Positions 3,073 through 30,693 of a stretch of DNA of 32,093 nt are shown piece by piece. Position numbers and translations under genes: made by a program. Source of the stretch: a virus (taxonomy: Duplodnaviria > Heunggongvirae > Uroviricota > Caudoviricetes); IMG/VR virus record IMGVR_UViG_2698536480_000001, positions 1-32,093 of that record. One strand, written 5' to 3'. The notes beneath the pieces were generated by a model. That model was given only the letters and a program-made list of their open reading frames with translations. It did not search any database and was not told the origin of the DNA. Numbering within the stretch: position 1 is the stretch's first letter; every line of letters begins with the position of its first letter.

Positions 3073-3441
3073 TTAGTCAGCGAAGGTTAAGACGAGAATT
3101 ACCTTAATGATGTCTGCTACAACAGACACGGCCATAGATAAACCAAAGACGATCCAAGCCACAGTGATGTCTTCACTACCATCGTATAGAGTTCCGTAAT
3201 CACTGGTGTAAGGCGTAAATGTCGCGCCTTGATACAATAGGTATAAGCTTGATCCATAGAGGATAAATGCAGATATCCCTTGTATTGCTATGATCACCAG
3301 AATCATGAAACGAGCTGATCTATGCGCCCAAGCCTGGCTTATTTTTTCTGATAGAGATTTCGCAATAAAAGCATGCGCTAAGCCGTAAATTGTCGAGATT
3401 GCCAACATCCCAAAAAAGCTTGCTATAGCGGTTCCAACCAT
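3073..3441 (-). CDS. small polytopic membrane protein co-transcribed with cI (3-4 predicted TM helices)
   Basis: ORF immediately downstream of cI; ATG at 3441 with RBS AAGGGG 5 nt upstream (alternative TTG at 3462 overlaps the cI stop); hydrophobic segments throughout. Confidence 0.7.
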   Translation of the reverse strand: MVGTAIASFFGMLAISTIYGLAHAFIAKSLSEKISQAWAHRSARFMILVIIAIQGISAFILYGSSLYLLYQGATFTPYTSDYGTLYDGSEDITVAWIVFGLSMAVSVVADIIKVILVLTFAD

Positions 3442-3458
3442 AATCGCCCCTTGCGTGA

Positions 3459-4175
3459 TCAAACCAGCCTTAGTTTTGTCTCAATTGCAACGCCTATAAT
3501 CTTGCAGTTTCCATTGATTGGCACGAGAGGCCATGCAGGATTAAGTCCCTTGAGGTATTTATTTCCGCCGTCGATTATCAGCTTCTTGAATGTTGCTTCG
3601 TTAGAGTCAGAAAGTTTTGCTATGACCAAGCTGCCGTTGATCGCCTCCCTTCCGGTATCGAAAAGAACGAATGTTCCCTCTGGAATGCTTAACCCAACCG
3701 GTGCCGTCATTGAATCACCTTCCACTTTAAGCCAGAACGCATTACCTTGAATATGCGCGTCAGACTCAAGCCAAACATCTATGTCTTTAATGGTGTATGG
3801 TTCGCATGCTTCACACCACGAGCCAGCCTGGATACTGCTTAACACCGGATACCTCTTTCCTGCTCTGTATTCCCCTGCATACCTTACGTTGGCATCGCTC
3901 TTAAGGCTTTCTGCCTGTTCTGCAACCTTGGCAGCAATTGACTGGCTAAAATCAGCAATTGAGACTTGCAACAGCCGTGCAAAACCAGATGCAACCTCAA
4001 CGTTTAGCGCGTTTCTGCCATTAAGATAATGCCCTACCGCTCCTTGGGTGATACCCAGTTCATCAGCGATTGAGTATTGGGTTATTCCCAATTCTTTCTT
4101 TTTTGACTCATACAAAGCCTTAAGCCGCTTAGCGTCTTCGAGCTGTTCTGTCGTCAGTGATTTTTTATTTTCCAT
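3459..4175 (-). CDS. cI: CI-type prophage repressor (HTH plus LexA-like S24 peptidase domain)
   Basis: 238 aa; N-terminal HTH (QYSIADELGITQGAVGHYLNG), C-terminal autocleavage domain with GDSM serine motif and a conserved lysine further downstream; divergent from cro across an operator region. Confidence 0.92.
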   Translation of the reverse strand: MENKKSLTTEQLEDAKRLKALYESKKKELGITQYSIADELGITQGAVGHYLNGRNALNVEVASGFARLLQVSIADFSQSIAAKVAEQAESLKSDANVRYAGEYRAGKRYPVLSSIQAGSWCEACEPYTIKDIDVWLESDAHIQGNAFWLKVEGDSMTAPVGLSIPEGTFVLFDTGREAINGSLVIAKLSDSNEATFKKLIIDGGNKYLKGLNPAWPLVPINGNCKIIGVAIETKLRLV

Positions 4176-25316: not shown

Positions 25317-26729
25317 TTGGCTACATGGCAACAGGCTGGTAATTCAGGCGCGCTTCTTGCCGGGTTAGGCGGCATGAACTCCAACGCTCCAAGAGCAAGT
25401 GATGCAGACGCCACGCTTGCATACATTCGACAGAATAACGAGATGGAGCGTTCAGGACGTAATAACGTTGGCTTGCAGGCTTTGCAGGGCATTTCATCTG
25501 TCATGGATATGTATAAGCAGATGGATCAGCAGAATCGACAGCAAGAGTTTCAGCAGGCTTATGCTGATGCATATACATCTGGTGACCGCGATGCAATGCG
25601 AAAACTGGCATCACAGTATCCTGAGCAGTTTGACGTTGTAAGAAACGGCATGAAATTTGTCGATGAAGACCAGCGTTCCACTGTCGGTACACTGGCAGCA
25701 AGTGCCAGACTCGCAGCTTCATCTCCAGAAGCCATGATGTCATGGTTGCAGAACAACTCATCTGAGCTTACTCGTGCCGGAGTAGACCCTCTGGATGTGG
25801 CGAAAATGTATCAGCAAAATCCACAAGGTTTCACAGAGTTTGTTGATCACCTTGGAATGGCTGCTCTTGGTCCGATTGATTACTTCAATGTTCAGGACAA
25901 GATGGCTGGTCGTGAAATTGACCGAGGCAGGCTGGCAGAGACAATCCGCAGCAATCAGGCTGGTGAAGCACTTCAGGCGAGAAGGCAAAACCTTTCCTAT
26001 CAGTCAGCAATGACTGGGCACAATATCGCAGCACAACGCTTGGCTCTGGATCAGCAAGAGTTCGGGTTTAAGATGCAGCAAGCGCAGGAAAAGGCTCAGC
26101 AGTTGATTAGCGAAGCACCTAAGCTGTCAGTAAACATGGAAAAAGGCATCGAGACGGCTGTAAACAATGCCACAGCATCATCAAACTCAGCCAATTCTAT
26201 GAGTGCGCTTGCTCAACAGTTCAGAGCAGAAAAACCAACGACAGGTTTGTTCGGTAACGCACAGAACATGTTCGCAAAACTTACCGGAAGCGATACGACA
26301 TTGCGTGATTTGCGCATTCGCCAAAATGCCCTTGTTAACAGTCAGGTTCTTAAATTCCTACCTCCCGGCCCAGCAACGGATAAAGACGTTGAGATCGTTC
26401 GACAGGGTGCGCCAACTGACATGGATAACCCTGAGACGGTCGCAAGATGGCTTGATGCAATGGCAAACCTTGAGCGACGAAACGCGCAGTTTAATGAGTT
26501 TAAAGCTGAGTGGATGAGCGCGAATGGCAACCCTGGACAATCGCGTAATGGCGGTCAGATATTGGGGTTGGATGTTAAAAAAGGTGAATCATTGGGGAGT
26601 GCCGTTAAGCGGTATATGTCAATGAATACTGACGCAGCACCAGCGCAAGATTCGACACCTTCAGGAGAACCACGGAATCAGGTTGGATCATATACCTCAA
26701 AATCAGGCATTCAATTTACGGTGGAATGA
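25317..26729 (+). CDS. ejection protein (P22 gp20-type)
   Basis: 470 aa (P22 gp20 is 471 aa); TTG start at 25317 with SD GGAGG 6 nt upstream. Confidence 0.85.
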
Positions 26730-28567
26730 TGAAAGTAACTGCAAACGGTAAGACATTTACCTTCCCTGATGGTACGAGCACGGAAGATATTGGATCTGCC
26801 ATTGATGAGTATTTTGCTGGACAGTCTGTTCAGCAACAAACTGTCAGCCAGGATAGCAATGAACCAGCACGTGAAGAACCATCATTGATGCAACAAGCTG
26901 GCGATTGGCTCACTGGTGGTCAAAGTGCAGGGCAAATTGCAGAACAGGCTGGTCGTGGTCTGGTAAACATACCATTTGACGTATTGCAGGGTGGCGCAAG
27001 TCTGATTAATGCAATCAGTCAGGGGCTTGGTGGACCCAAGGTTTTGGATGATGTTTATCGTCCAGTAGACAGACCGACAGACCCCTACGCGCAAGCCGGT
27101 GAAACAATTGGTGGGTATTTAGTTCCAGGAGTTGGAACGGCAGGAAGCATGGCTATTGGCTCACTGGCAGAGGCTGCAAATCAGAAAGGCGATTTCGCAC
27201 AAAATGCAGCAAGAAACGCCGGAGTTAACCTTGCCGCTCAGGGGGTTCTTTCCGCAGCAGCAAAGGGAATAGGGCGTGGAATAACGGCTATAAAAGGTGA
27301 TATTGCGCCAGAAGTGGCGAAGAAAATTGCCACATCAGAATCGATGGGCGTGACACCAATGACATCTGATGTTATCCCGCCGAAAAATGCTTTCACTCGC
27401 GGCCTTACTCAGGATGCCGAGGGGGCTTTGCTCGGGACAGGCTCAAAGAGAGCGGAGCAATATGCAACGCGTAGTAAGCTGGTAAGCAATTATTTTGACC
27501 GTTTTGGTGAGTACAACCCTGATGATGTGGTGAAATCTCTGACCACCACGTTAAGGGGGCGGAAGGATGCCGCTGGCGCTGTTATCAATGACGTCACCAA
27601 TAAAATGGGTAATGCCGCAGTTGATACCACAAATACCATGAATGCTCTGAATACAGCGATCGCAAGACAGGAACGGCTTGGGACTTCAGCCAATCAAAGC
27701 CTGCTTACATCCTTGCGTAACCTACGTGAAGAATTAGCAAACCCTGCAACTGATTTGGATGTTACGTTTGATCTCTTGCGTCAGCACAGAACAGCATTTA
27801 GATCTAATGTTCAGGGAGATTCTATGGTCTTCCCCAACCAGGCAAAAGCAGCTACCAATATGGTAGAGAATGCAATGTCAAAAGACCTTCGTAACGCAGT
27901 TGCAAAAAACCTCGGTGCGTCAGACGCAGCAAAATACCTTAAAGCAAATTCCGATTATGCAAACGTTTATAATAAGGTGCTTAATAAAAACATTGCTAAC
28001 AAGCTCAACAAGGCAAGCAGTGAAGCCAGTCCTGAACTTATAAATACCGTTGTATTAAGCAGAAAGCCATCTGACGTGAAACGAATCTGGAGCGCATTGG
28101 ATGATAAAGGGAAAGATGCTATGCGTGCAGCTTACGTCAGCAAAATAGCGGAAAAGGCCGGTGACTCTCCAGCCAAGTTCATCACTGAAGTTAATAAGCT
28201 TAAATCTCAGTCAGGCGGTGAAATTTACAACACTATTTTTTCTGGAAAGCACATGAAAGAGCTTGATGCTCTTCATGAAGTTCTACAGCAAACAGCAAGG
28301 TCAGACACCGCAAATGTAGTAACTCAGACGGGGCAATCACAAGCCAACAGGATAAGGACGATTGGCGCAACTGCGACTCTTGGAGTATCAATGGGGCTTG
28401 AGGCTGGCTTTGGTGCAATGATGCGTTTGTATGAGTCCAAAGCCGCAAGGAATATGCTTCTTCGTTTGGCAAACACCAAAGCAGGAACACCAGCCTATGA
28501 AAGAGCGCTAAATAACGCTGCGAATGCCATCAGACCGCTGTTTGCTACTGAGGCAACACAGCAGTAA
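26726..28567 (+). CDS. ejection protein (P22 gp16-type)
   Basis: 613 aa (P22 gp16 is 609 aa); last gene of the virion operon before the immI-type region. Confidence 0.85.
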
Positions 28568-28591
28568 CGTATGGGAAATTGGATTCAATCG

Positions 28592-28981
28592 CTAACATTT
28601 TCTTTTTACTTTTCCAACAAAAGCTTTGGTTGAATCCATATTTCCATAACCGGAAATGGTTTTTGACATTAAAACTGTTCCAGTAGGATGTATTACCCAT
28701 GAGTCGATAACGCGTTGAGTTTCGCCATTCGCGCCGATTCCTATGATGGAGTTTTTAGACAATGCTTTGTAAGCCATGCCGCCCGCATCTGTCCCAGAAT
28801 ATGTGATGCTGGCATCTTCACCGCTTGTCTTAATGATGAATGTTCCACTAAAACCATCTTCTTCCGGATGGAAATTATTTCGTTCTGAATAGCTTATTCC
28901 GCGCATATCTCCAACGACCCAGCACTCTGCTGTAGCCCCAAAAGATATGAATAAGAACATAGCAGCAAGAAATTGCTTCAC
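28592..28981 (-). CDS. secreted (signal-peptide) protein of unknown function at the sieA-equivalent locus
   Basis: GTG start at 28981 with SD AAGGAGG 5 nt upstream (track ATG at 29056 is further upstream); N-terminus MKQFLAAMFLFISFGATA-E looks like a Sec signal peptide; mature protein about 110 aa with Cys near both ends; convergent with gp16. Confidence 0.7.
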   Translation of the reverse strand: MKQFLAAMFLFISFGATAECWVVGDMRGISYSERNNFHPEEDGFSGTFIIKTSGEDASITYSGTDAGGMAYKALSKNSIIGIGANGETQRVIDSWVIHPTGTVLMSKTISGYGNMDSTKAFVGKVKRKC

Positions 28982-29045
28982 ACCAACCTCCTTAGTTTTG
29001 AGCAGGATACCAGATGATAATGTGTAGTTGGAGTAGCGCGGTTGT

Positions 29046-29137
29046 AATGCAAGCATTTTGTTTTAGTTTTATGCTTGCTTGTATGTGTGCACAGTGTATA
29101 TAATGCAAGCATAAATCACAACAAAGGTGCTTGCATT
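29046..29137 (+). promoter_or_regulatory. divergent promoter region with two about 35-bp palindromic operator-like modules
   Basis: AATGCAAGCAT (29046-29056) and inverted copy ATGCTTGCTT (29071-29080); AATGCAAGCAT (29102-29112) and inverted copy GTGCTTGCATT (29127-29137); -35 TTGCTT, 17-18 bp spacer, -10 TATAAT lie between the modules; the second module ends at the start codon of the downstream gene. Confidence 0.5.
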
Positions 29138-30106
29138 ATGACTGAAAAGAAAAGTGGCGAAGGGAAAGCTAAGGGCGGGATCGCTCGCGCAAAGTCGCTG
29201 ACTAAAGAGCAGCGTTCTGAAATAGCAAAGAAAGCAGCTGCTGCAAGATGGAAAAGTAAGATTCTCAGGGCAACTCATCGTGGTAACTTTTTAGATGATT
29301 TTGGCATTGATGCTGAATGTTATGTACTGGATGACGAGTCGAAAACTGTCGTTGTTACGAAAACTGGATTATCTCAGTTGCTAGGGATTGGTGAACATGC
29401 CAGGGATTTAGATCAACTGCTTGGCGCTCAGTATATGAGCAAATACCGAGATCTAGAATTGCAGCGAAAAATGGAAAATCCCTATAAATTTCAACTTACT
29501 TCGAAGTCTAAAACCGTTCATCAAGCGTTAGGTTATGACATTACAGCAATTGTTGATATTGGTAGGGCACTAATAGAAGCCAAAGATAATGACGATCTAC
29601 CACAATCACGGTTAAAGGCAGCCGCCGCAGCACAGAGACTTATTAATGCCTCCGCTAAGGCGGGAATTAAGGGGGTTGCGTATGCGCTTGCTGGTTATCG
29701 TCCAGAAGTTCAGGCTGTCATTGACGAGTTCAAAGCGTTTGTTCGTGAAGAGGCTCGTCAATATGAAAAGGAATTTCCAGATGAGCTATACGAGGAGTGG
29801 TATCGACTGTACGGCCTGAATAGGCCAGAGAAAGGACGGCCTATTCGTTTTGGGCAGCTAACCAACATGCAGATATACACCCCGCTAGCAAAGAGTAAAG
29901 GTAAAATCCTTGAACAGATTCGAGCCAGCCGAGACGAGAACGGAAAACAATCTGATAAGTTGCATCTGTTCCTTTCTGAAATTGGTGTCAAGGCTTTGCG
30001 TCAGCATATCGGTAAGCTTCTTGGGGTCGCAGCGATGAGTGAGACAAGAGAAGAATACGAAAAAGGAATAGAAAAGGTTTTTGGAAGAATGAAACCAGAA
30101 ATCTAA
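29138..30106 (+). CDS. hypothetical 322-aa protein with N-terminal basic helix (possible DNA/RNA-binding), immI-region accessory gene
   Basis: ATG at 29138; N-terminus KKSGEGKAKGGIARAKSLTKEQRSEIAKKAAAARWKSK is strongly basic; remainder mixed charge; followed by a bidirectional terminator shared with mnt. Confidence 0.75.
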   Translation: MTEKKSGEGKAKGGIARAKSLTKEQRSEIAKKAAAARWKSKILRATHRGNFLDDFGIDAECYVLDDESKTVVVTKTGLSQLLGIGEHARDLDQLLGAQYMSKYRDLELQRKMENPYKFQLTSKSKTVHQALGYDITAIVDIGRALIEAKDNDDLPQSRLKAAAAAQRLINASAKAGIKGVAYALAGYRPEVQAVIDEFKAFVREEARQYEKEFPDELYEEWYRLYGLNRPEKGRPIRFGQLTNMQIYTPLAKSKGKILEQIRASRDENGKQSDKLHLFLSEIGVKALRQHIGKLLGVAAMSETREEYEKGIEKVFGRMKPEI

Positions 30107-30110
30107 TTAT

Positions 30111-30137
30111 GAAACCCACCGTCAGGTGGGTTTTTTG
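30111..30137. terminator. bidirectional intrinsic terminator between the 322-aa gene and mnt
   Basis: AAACCCACC-GTCA-GGTGGGTTTTTT; A-run on one side and T-run on the other; the mnt stop codon lies in the loop. Confidence 0.7.
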
Positions 30138-30373
30138 TACAAATCCTTCAGCGTATCAAACACCATCTTCTTAACAAGTTCGGACTGCTCATCAGCGAGT
30201 CGTTCTGCATCGTCGCGATATCCAGTCACAGGCGATGGTTTTGATAGAGCATCTTGGACGATTTGTAACAACTCGGAGTTCATTGATCTCCCATTCGCCT
30301 CCGCCCTGAATTTTAATTTCTCCCTTACTTCCATAGGCATACGGAAGTTAAAGTGCGGATCATCTCTAGCCAT
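30122..30373 (-). CDS. mnt: Mnt repressor (ribbon-helix-helix, P22 immI)
   Basis: 83 aa, near-identical to P22 Mnt as recalled (MARDDPHFNFRMPMEVREKLKFRAEANGRSMNSELLQIVQDAL...). Confidence 0.92.
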   Translation of the reverse strand: MARDDPHFNFRMPMEVREKLKFRAEANGRSMNSELLQIVQDALSKPSPVTGYRDDAERLADEQSELVKKMVFDTLKDLYKKPT

Positions 30374-30463: not shown

Positions 30464-30625
30464 ATGAAAGGAATGAGCAAGATGCCGCAGTTCAATTTGC
30501 GGTGGCCTAAAGAAGTATTGGATTTGGTACGCAAGGTGGCGGAAGAGAATGGTCGGTCTGTTAACTCTGAGATTTATCAGAGAGTAATGGAAAGCTTTAA
30601 GAAGGAAGGGCGCATTGGCGCGTAA
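30464..30625 (+). CDS. arc: Arc repressor (ribbon-helix-helix)
   Basis: 53 aa [53 protein letters not shown], matching P22 Arc apart from one conservative change. Confidence 0.92.
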
Positions 30626-30693
30626 AGTTGAAGCCCCAACTGCGGGAACAGTCAGGGCTTCGGTATCAACAAATCGGATTAGGAAATATTGAC

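Follow-up and report, generated by a model that had tools for sequence, protein, structure and literature searches.

A Hex-family gene with a predicted export signal lies in the sieA slot of a P22-like Escherichia coli prophage and may encode a periplasmic exclusion factor

The window is the 32,093-nucleotide stretch of DNA that makes up positions 1 to 32,093 of IMG/VR virus record IMGVR_UViG_2698536480_000001, and overall it is a P22-like Escherichia coli (E. coli) prophage. The gene of interest is located on its minus strand at 28592–28981. In the original prediction it was described as encoding a secreted protein of no recognised family that stands where phage P22 carries sieA, the gene for an inner-membrane superinfection-exclusion protein. 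Sequence comparison indicates that the product is a divergent member of the Hex family, known from phage 434, in a new genomic position, and that the gene is a cassette swap in the sieA slot. The gene and its parts are as follows.

28592–28981, minus strand: coding sequence of the Hex family (PHROG 2651), 129 codons followed by a stop codon at 28592–28594, with a GTG start codon at 28981–28979.
28987–28993, minus strand: Shine-Dalgarno sequence AAGGAGG, 5 nucleotides (nt) ahead of the GTG and invariant in six phages.
28928–28981, minus strand: predicted Sec signal peptide, residues 1–18, MKQFLAAMFLFISFGATA, with a predicted signal peptidase I cut between A18 and E19.
28595–28927, minus strand: mature protein of 111 amino acids, 11.9 kDa and an isoelectric point (pI) of 7.0, predicted to be a nine-strand antiparallel beta-barrel.
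28979–29012, minus strand: conserved 34-nt cassette head TGGTATCCTGCTCAAAACTAAGGAGGTTGGTGTG, which agrees at 33 of 34 positions with the P22 sequence that runs up to and includes the GTG of sieA; the same leader is found at 2329–2362 of locus L181 and also in L018, L019, and L020.

Both the gene of about 129 amino acids and the strong ribosome-binding site of the original prediction are borne out. Comparison with an 87%-identical relative gave a ratio of nonsynonymous to synonymous substitution rates (dN/dS) of 0.28, and the reading frame is clearly a real gene under purifying selection. The start codon is GTG and not ATG. RefSeq places the start of the identical gene in E. coli O111:H8 TW05614 at the internal Met8, which results in a 122-amino-acid 'hypothetical protein' (WP_063610642) with an 11-residue leader that has no charged n-region. 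The GTG is the better call because it matches the homologues, every one of which keeps the charged n-region that is dropped by the Met8 start. Copies with at least 95% identity are present in 147 of 5426 complete E. coli genomes, all of them labelled hypothetical, and a profile search of 1.84 billion cluster representatives returned 210 related clusters at 50% identity (E ≤ 0.001).

The statement that the family is unrecognised does not hold, as the protein matches PHROG 2651 (annotated 'unknown function', E 9e-61), a family with a named member, Hex. Translated searches of phage genomes found near-identical copies in the same slot of Salmonella phages Emek (gp14) and ST-35. Full-length tblastn matches at 27% identity fall on the gene directly 3' of the repressor in 434, lambda-imm434, Sf6 (gp38), HK446, HK633, and Sf101, and in phage 434 this gene is hex ('heterologous exclusion'). 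BLASTP of the window protein against Hex gives an E of 3e-12. The window clade (19 sequences) and the Hex clade (24 sequences) were each turned into a profile of their own, and hhalign aligned the two profiles end to end over 131 columns, with a probability of 99.9% and an E of 2.4e-31. PHROG 2651 is matched by 57 of 57 diverse members, which come from Escherichia, Salmonella, Enterobacter, Citrobacter, Klebsiella, Yersinia, Pantoea, Cedecea, Erwinia, and Aeromonas. No Pfam family is matched by any of these, the scan giving only scattered matches at E > 0.02.

The window protein shares with 434 Hex and Sf6 gp38 full-length homology, the PHROG assignment, a signal peptide, an xCW mature start, a C-terminal cysteine, a predicted nine-strand barrel, and the status of a prophage accessory gene, one that in relatives is tied to a lysogeny repressor. 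The two proteins differ in that the identity to Hex is only 27–28%, the mature pI of Hex is 4.6 compared to 7.0, and hex overlaps the cI stop codon and is read from PRM, whereas the window gene is at the opposite genome end, where it occupies the sieA cassette next to gene 16. Scans of the window protein against Pfam, NCBIfam, and PADLOC gave no meaningful match (NCBIfam EutA and PA0050 appear at E > 0.05, far under their cut-offs), and a sequence-profile search of the Protein Data Bank (PDB) gave none at E ≤ 1. In none of these four collections was there a characterised family with an unrelated role.

The clear Sec signal peptide of the original prediction is upheld by a rule-based analysis that compared the 57 diverse family members. 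The window signal peptide features a basic n-region, a hydrophobic core with a best 9-residue Kyte-Doolittle mean of 2.9, and A-T-A at positions -3 to -1, and it is followed by ECW. The same layout is found in all 57 members. Their leaders are 17–27 residues long with at least one Lys or Arg and a hydrophobic core, position -1 is Ala in 51 and Ser in 6, position -3 is small throughout, and the mature N-terminus is xCW. Each of the 57 mature proteins has exactly two cysteines, one at residue 2 and one in the C-terminal region. A lipoprotein was considered and rejected: there is no lipobox, and immediately ahead of Cys20, 54 members have D, E, N, S, A, Q, or K and the other 3 have G. The invariant columns in the family alignment are C20, C129, W21, G28, D42, W95, and G123.

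The AlphaFold2 model of the window protein, made with the family alignment, has a predicted local distance difference test score (pLDDT) of 91.4 and a predicted template modelling score (pTM) of 0.79. It features a leader helix followed by nine antiparallel strands; the helix at residues 2–15, in the signal peptide region, has a lower pLDDT. Beyond the signal peptide the model is all-beta with no hydrophobic helix. An independent AlphaFold2 model of the Hex type (pLDDT 85.8) features an N-terminal helix and nine strands in the same order. In the window model a disulphide between C20 and C129 would likely join the first and last strands. Foldseek searches with the predicted structure gave no match at E ≤ 0.001 in the PDB or BFVD. 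The structural matches that were listed are generic barrels with no specific structural relative among them, many of which outscore PhiA. None of those listed exceeds 20% identity, and none of the best 15 exceeds 14%.

There is a discrepancy regarding the type of barrel, as the record of phage Huey (PQ850609) labels its Hex homologue 'PagP lipid A acylation protein'. An outer-membrane beta-barrel of the eight-stranded kind, such as Lom, Ail, OmpX, PagP, or NspA, would act by changing the cell surface or by masking a receptor. The mature part is only 111 amino acids long, and four of its nine predicted strands have only six residues, too short to span a membrane, for which about 10 are needed. 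There is no C-terminal aromatic residue, the family ending instead in a cysteine followed by variable polar tails, and conserved charged residues are located on both faces of the strands. A PagP- or OmpX-type Pfam match is found in 0 of 57 members, and almost equal scores are reached by barrels that are soluble (NHBA, Cap15, avidins, fatty-acid-binding proteins). The lack of a PagP match in Pfam for any member casts doubt on the Huey label, which is probably an over-reading of a generic barrel fold, and an outer-membrane barrel is very improbable. The short strands, the missing aromatic residue, and the charges on both strand faces point to a soluble periplasmic barrel instead of a membrane barrel, and the invariant terminal cysteines, which would staple the first strand to the last, are in line with this reading of the model.

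The position of the gene in the prophage is defined by the following features.

26726–28567, plus strand: gene 16 homologue (ejection or DNA-transfer protein, from the RefSeq and Pfam naming of relatives), the convergent neighbour, with stop codons 24 nt apart.
29138–30106, plus strand: P63C-domain gene (PF10546, E 6.8e-14; PHROG 2384), oriented oppositely to the Hex-like gene and mnt, which it separates.
30122–30373, minus strand: mnt, for the immI maintenance repressor, sharing its strand with the Hex-like gene.
30464–30625: arc.
30626–30692, minus strand: sar antisense RNA (Rfam RF00262, 71.6 bits).
3459–4175, minus strand: 434-like cI, 52% identical to 434 cI.

P22 sieA is found in the same place and orientation, between genes 16 and 9, convergent with gene 16 and 22 nt beyond it, and has an annotated promoter of its own. 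The leader TGGTATCCTGC(T/A)CAAAACTAAGGAGGTTGGTGTG, with the ribosome-binding site and the GTG start, precedes the window gene, P22 sieA, epsilon34 gp14 (hkcB-like), and a gene of 611R6 for a 134-amino-acid membrane or coiled-coil protein, and in JEP4 an unannotated reading frame stands behind the same leader and GTG. The leader also precedes the Hex-like gene in 59 of 80 related IMG/VR loci. The presence of one leader and GTG before unrelated coding sequences suggests that genes have been exchanged exactly at the start codon of a single expression cassette. A conserved 3' boundary of the cassette was looked for and not found. The claim that the gene fills the sieA slot between gene 16 and mnt stands for the P22 position, the leader, the ribosome-binding site, and the GTG, and is modified by the P63C-domain gene that lies before mnt. 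Within the leader, the invariant TGGTATCCT at 29012–29004 resembles an extended -10 element, which is offered as a suggestion.

A SieA homologue was also considered for the window protein and rejected, with a BLASTP E of 0.89 and no transmembrane helices beyond the signal peptide in the all-beta model. SieA has three predicted transmembrane helices and no signal sequence, and SieA types A–C are defined by three or four transmembrane helices together with an FxRYPxEAxxFNK motif (PMC10883804). The likeness between the two is one of position only, in a slot convergent with gene 16 on the mnt strand behind a near-identical leader; SieA is an integral inner-membrane protein whereas the window protein is predicted to be a cleaved, soluble-looking beta-barrel. 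SieA is at most a functional analogue of the window protein and not of the same family. P22 sieA is expressed from the prophage and is sufficient to block DNA injection by P22-like phages, and escape mutations from SieA map to the ejection proteins gp16 and gp20 (PMC10883804).

Several further observations were made around the slot. The mnt, arc, sar, and ant genes of the window form a complete P22-type immI region. The 24 nt between the convergent stop codons (28568–28591) contain no terminator-like hairpin, and the only terminator-like sites near the Hex-like gene fall within its coding sequence (28854–28871). At 29045–29139 there are two operator-like inverted repeats built on TAATGCAAGCA and TGCTTGCATTA, one pair of which has 12-nt arms that are 100% complementary (29100–29111 and 29128–29139). 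The repeats overlap a promoter-like TTGCTT-18-TATAAT (29075–29104) and the start codon of the P63C-domain gene, and the region looks like a repressor-controlled promoter.

The genomic settings of the relatives were surveyed in 80 window-type loci from IMG/VR (L021–L100) and 80 Hex-type loci. Gene 16 was detected in 74 of the window-type loci and always converges with the window-type gene; an upstream mnt was detected in 72, and the window-type gene always lies 3' of it on the same strand. In both cases the rest of the 80 are truncated contigs. In a 52%-identical relative the Hex-like gene overlaps the mnt stop codon by 4 nt, unlike the window, where the oppositely oriented P63C-domain gene parts the two. 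The interval from mnt to the Hex-like gene holds very variable cargo of 0.35–2.8 kb, which depending on the prophage comprises a Rap1a-like exported protein (PF18602), a 143-amino-acid lipoprotein, P63C, DUF4065 and a partner, or KilA/Ant-like and PIN-like genes. In the Hex clade, hex is directly 3' of cI in 78 of 80 loci and is then followed by N in 75, and cI and hex share 4 nt in 434, Enterobacter, and Yersinia. In Enterobacter ludwigii the copy and cI converge, and the Aeromonas and Cedecea copies are located in islands or remnants by integrase or resolvase genes. These arrangements suggest that placement in prophage-expressed units is a common theme of Hex-family genes. Two IMG/VR contigs carry both paralogues, a cI-linked Hex type and a gene-16-linked window type, in one prophage (L074/L147 and L030/L180), and two paralogues per prophage fit exclusion factors with different targets.

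Two side observations come from the same comparison. In the 52%-identical relatives (L010–L013), the gene 16 homologue is an 836-amino-acid protein with an N-terminal lytic transglycosylase domain (SLT, PF01464), which implies that some such phages eject a cell-wall hydrolase fused to a conduit protein, encoded beside the mnt and Hex-like operon. The window has no second Hex copy beside its cI; the hex slot of 434 and Sf6 is taken at 3073–3462 on the minus strand by a 129-amino-acid, strongly hydrophobic, multi-pass-looking reading frame whose start overlaps the cI stop codon and which is probably another prophage-expressed membrane protein.

The cargo of these loci also bears on an immunity function directed at something other than phage. 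In 13 related loci the Rap1a-like gene, whose PF18602 family provides immunity to type VI amidase effectors, is directly upstream in the same operon, and copies of the Hex-like gene also exist outside intact prophages. Both features are consistent with lysogenic conversion by a periplasmic inhibitor of cell-wall-degrading enzymes or toxins (lysozymes, type VI effectors, or colicin-like proteins) released by competitors or hosts. In a Pfam scan at E ≤ 0.1, no member matched MliC or any other family of inhibitors or immunity proteins, and the structural matches are generic barrels, many of them scoring above PhiA. Phage exclusion is the sole phenotype that genetic work has reported for the family, and the window gene stands in the sieA cassette beside ejection-protein genes. 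An inhibitor of this kind is unlikely.

The published work on the family concerns Hex and comes from a single paper, as nothing beyond PMC3564112 was found in the literature on Hex or on periplasmic exclusion in P22-like phages. According to that paper, which cites Susskind and Botstein 1980, P22 is excluded by Salmonella lysogens of lambda-imm434, an effect that is lost when the lysogen is hex-. Hex is annotated 'repressor protection protein', and PMC3564112 describes it as co-transcribed with cI from PRM. Replacement of hex increased spontaneous induction about 30-fold in recA+ cells and not in recA- cells, a 6-kDa fragment called sHex protected the 434 and P22 repressors from RecA-stimulated cleavage in vitro and gave partial complementation of the hex mutant, and overexpressed full-length Hex was toxic (PMC3564112). 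These results have been explained by a cytoplasmic protein that hinders the RecA-stimulated self-cleavage of a LexA-like prophage repressor and thereby stabilises lysogeny, and the resemblance of the window cI to 434 cI would allow such a role here.

There is a conflict between this cytoplasmic role and the export signal that is conserved in every member of the family. That 57 of 57 members retain both a cleavable signal peptide and a pair of cysteines is hard to square with work in the cytoplasm, and a signal peptide is nowhere mentioned in PMC3564112. The hex reading frame used in that study has 158 codons and starts 24 codons upstream, inside cI. The DNA sequences given in the paper show that sHex begins with GAATGCTGG, which encodes ECW, so that the 'E43' of the paper is E19 of the 134-amino-acid Hex. 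The start of sHex (ECWIV) is thus the residue just after the predicted signal peptidase site of Hex, between ANS and ECW, and its end at N79 falls just before strand 6 of the 9 in the Hex-type model. Judged by this model, sHex, which was purified through guanidine (PMC3564112), would be a half-barrel that lacks the C-terminal cysteine and is unable to fold natively. In the hex- allele, a cat cassette that brings its own promoter and terminator is inserted just 3' of cI (PMC3564112 sequences), and we infer that polar effects on cI are possible. Additionally, genes of the window clade are associated with mnt and with the sieA cassette and not with cI, and the Aeromonas and Cedecea copies have no repressor nearby. 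A cytoplasmic mechanism for the native Hex-family protein is doubtful, and repressor protection is a distinctly improbable function for the window protein.

The favoured reading, which is on balance probable and held with modest confidence, is that the window protein is made by the prophage, is located in the periplasm, and excludes P22-like phages at the envelope stage. It is built on the Hex phenotype, the export signals found throughout the family, the placement in the sieA cassette next to the ejection genes, and the block of DNA injection by SieA, and the linkage of relatives to lysogeny repressors in mnt or cI operons is counted for it. From these relatives and neighbours we infer that the window gene is expressed in the lysogen and that its product is periplasmic and serves in exclusion, and the target named below is derived in the same way. 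In the proposed mechanism, the prophage would make a small protein that Sec exports and signal peptidase cuts after Ala18. Once in the periplasm, this protein of about 12 kDa would fold as a soluble beta-barrel held shut by a Cys20–Cys129 disulphide, and it would shield the lysogen from heterologous P22-like phages by disturbing infection at an early stage. Its likeliest target would be the conduit of ejection proteins (gp7, gp20, and gp16) or an accompanying cell-wall-cutting activity. The observation made in the original prediction is confirmed, and its interpretation, that the protein could block DNA delivery by superinfecting phage or serve as a lysogenic-conversion factor, is partly supported.

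There are precedents for exclusion proteins that act outside the cytoplasm. T4 Spackle (Sp), which is small and exported by Sec, works in the periplasm, where it excludes superinfecting phage via the virion gp5 lysozyme. The window protein is likewise small and predicted to be Sec-exported, and its proposed action is in the same compartment; Spackle differs in that it is helical and comes from a lytic phage. PMC3952083 describes Ltp of the Streptococcus thermophilus phage TP-J34 as a prophage-encoded exclusion protein located outside the cytoplasmic membrane. On the favoured reading, Ltp resembles the window protein in both respects. It differs in that its host is Gram-positive, its fold is unrelated, and it is a lipoprotein, whereas the window protein has no lipobox.

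Several points weigh against periplasmic exclusion. The sole biochemistry on the family assigns it a cytoplasmic role in blocking RecA-stimulated repressor cleavage, and the exclusion phenotype of Hex rests on the account of the 1980 work in PMC3564112. An identity of only 27–28% means that the specificity of Hex is not transferable to the window protein, the generic-barrel matches mean that the structure points to no target, and the defence models of PADLOC-DB 2.0 matched 0 families at E ≤ 1. The promoter of the gene is also elusive. A strict consensus scan found no sigma-70 site in the region between the divergent genes (28982–29137), a relaxed scan upstream gave only TTGTGA-17-TACACT, an 8/12 match that is not relied on, and the -35 part of the annotated sieA promoter of P22 is not conserved in the window. 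The divergent promoter region claimed in the original prediction is thus not demonstrable.

A broader proposal can be made tentatively. Hex-family proteins may be a widespread and unrecognised set of soluble periplasmic exclusion factors of enterobacterial prophages, which would bind the gp7/gp20/gp16 conduit or a hydrolase released by short-tailed P22-like phages and could be swapped with SieA behind one leader. Under this proposal 'repressor protection' would be an artefact of a signal-less half-barrel and a polar allele.

The Hex family is already known but poorly understood, and no new kind of system is described here. The analysis gives a name and a candidate function to the 'hypothetical protein' of 147 of 5426 complete E. 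coli genomes, in a family that spans the Enterobacterales and Aeromonas, and it links an abundant hypothetical prophage gene to a reported exclusion phenotype. It also exposes a contradiction in the literature, in that Hex, the only studied member, was given a cytoplasmic mechanism despite a family-wide export signal. The sieA slot of P22-like phages appears as a plug-in site in which unrelated envelope proteins have been swapped precisely at the start codon. If periplasmic exclusion is true, the window protein would provide a simple soluble probe of how short-tailed phages build a DNA conduit across the periplasm.
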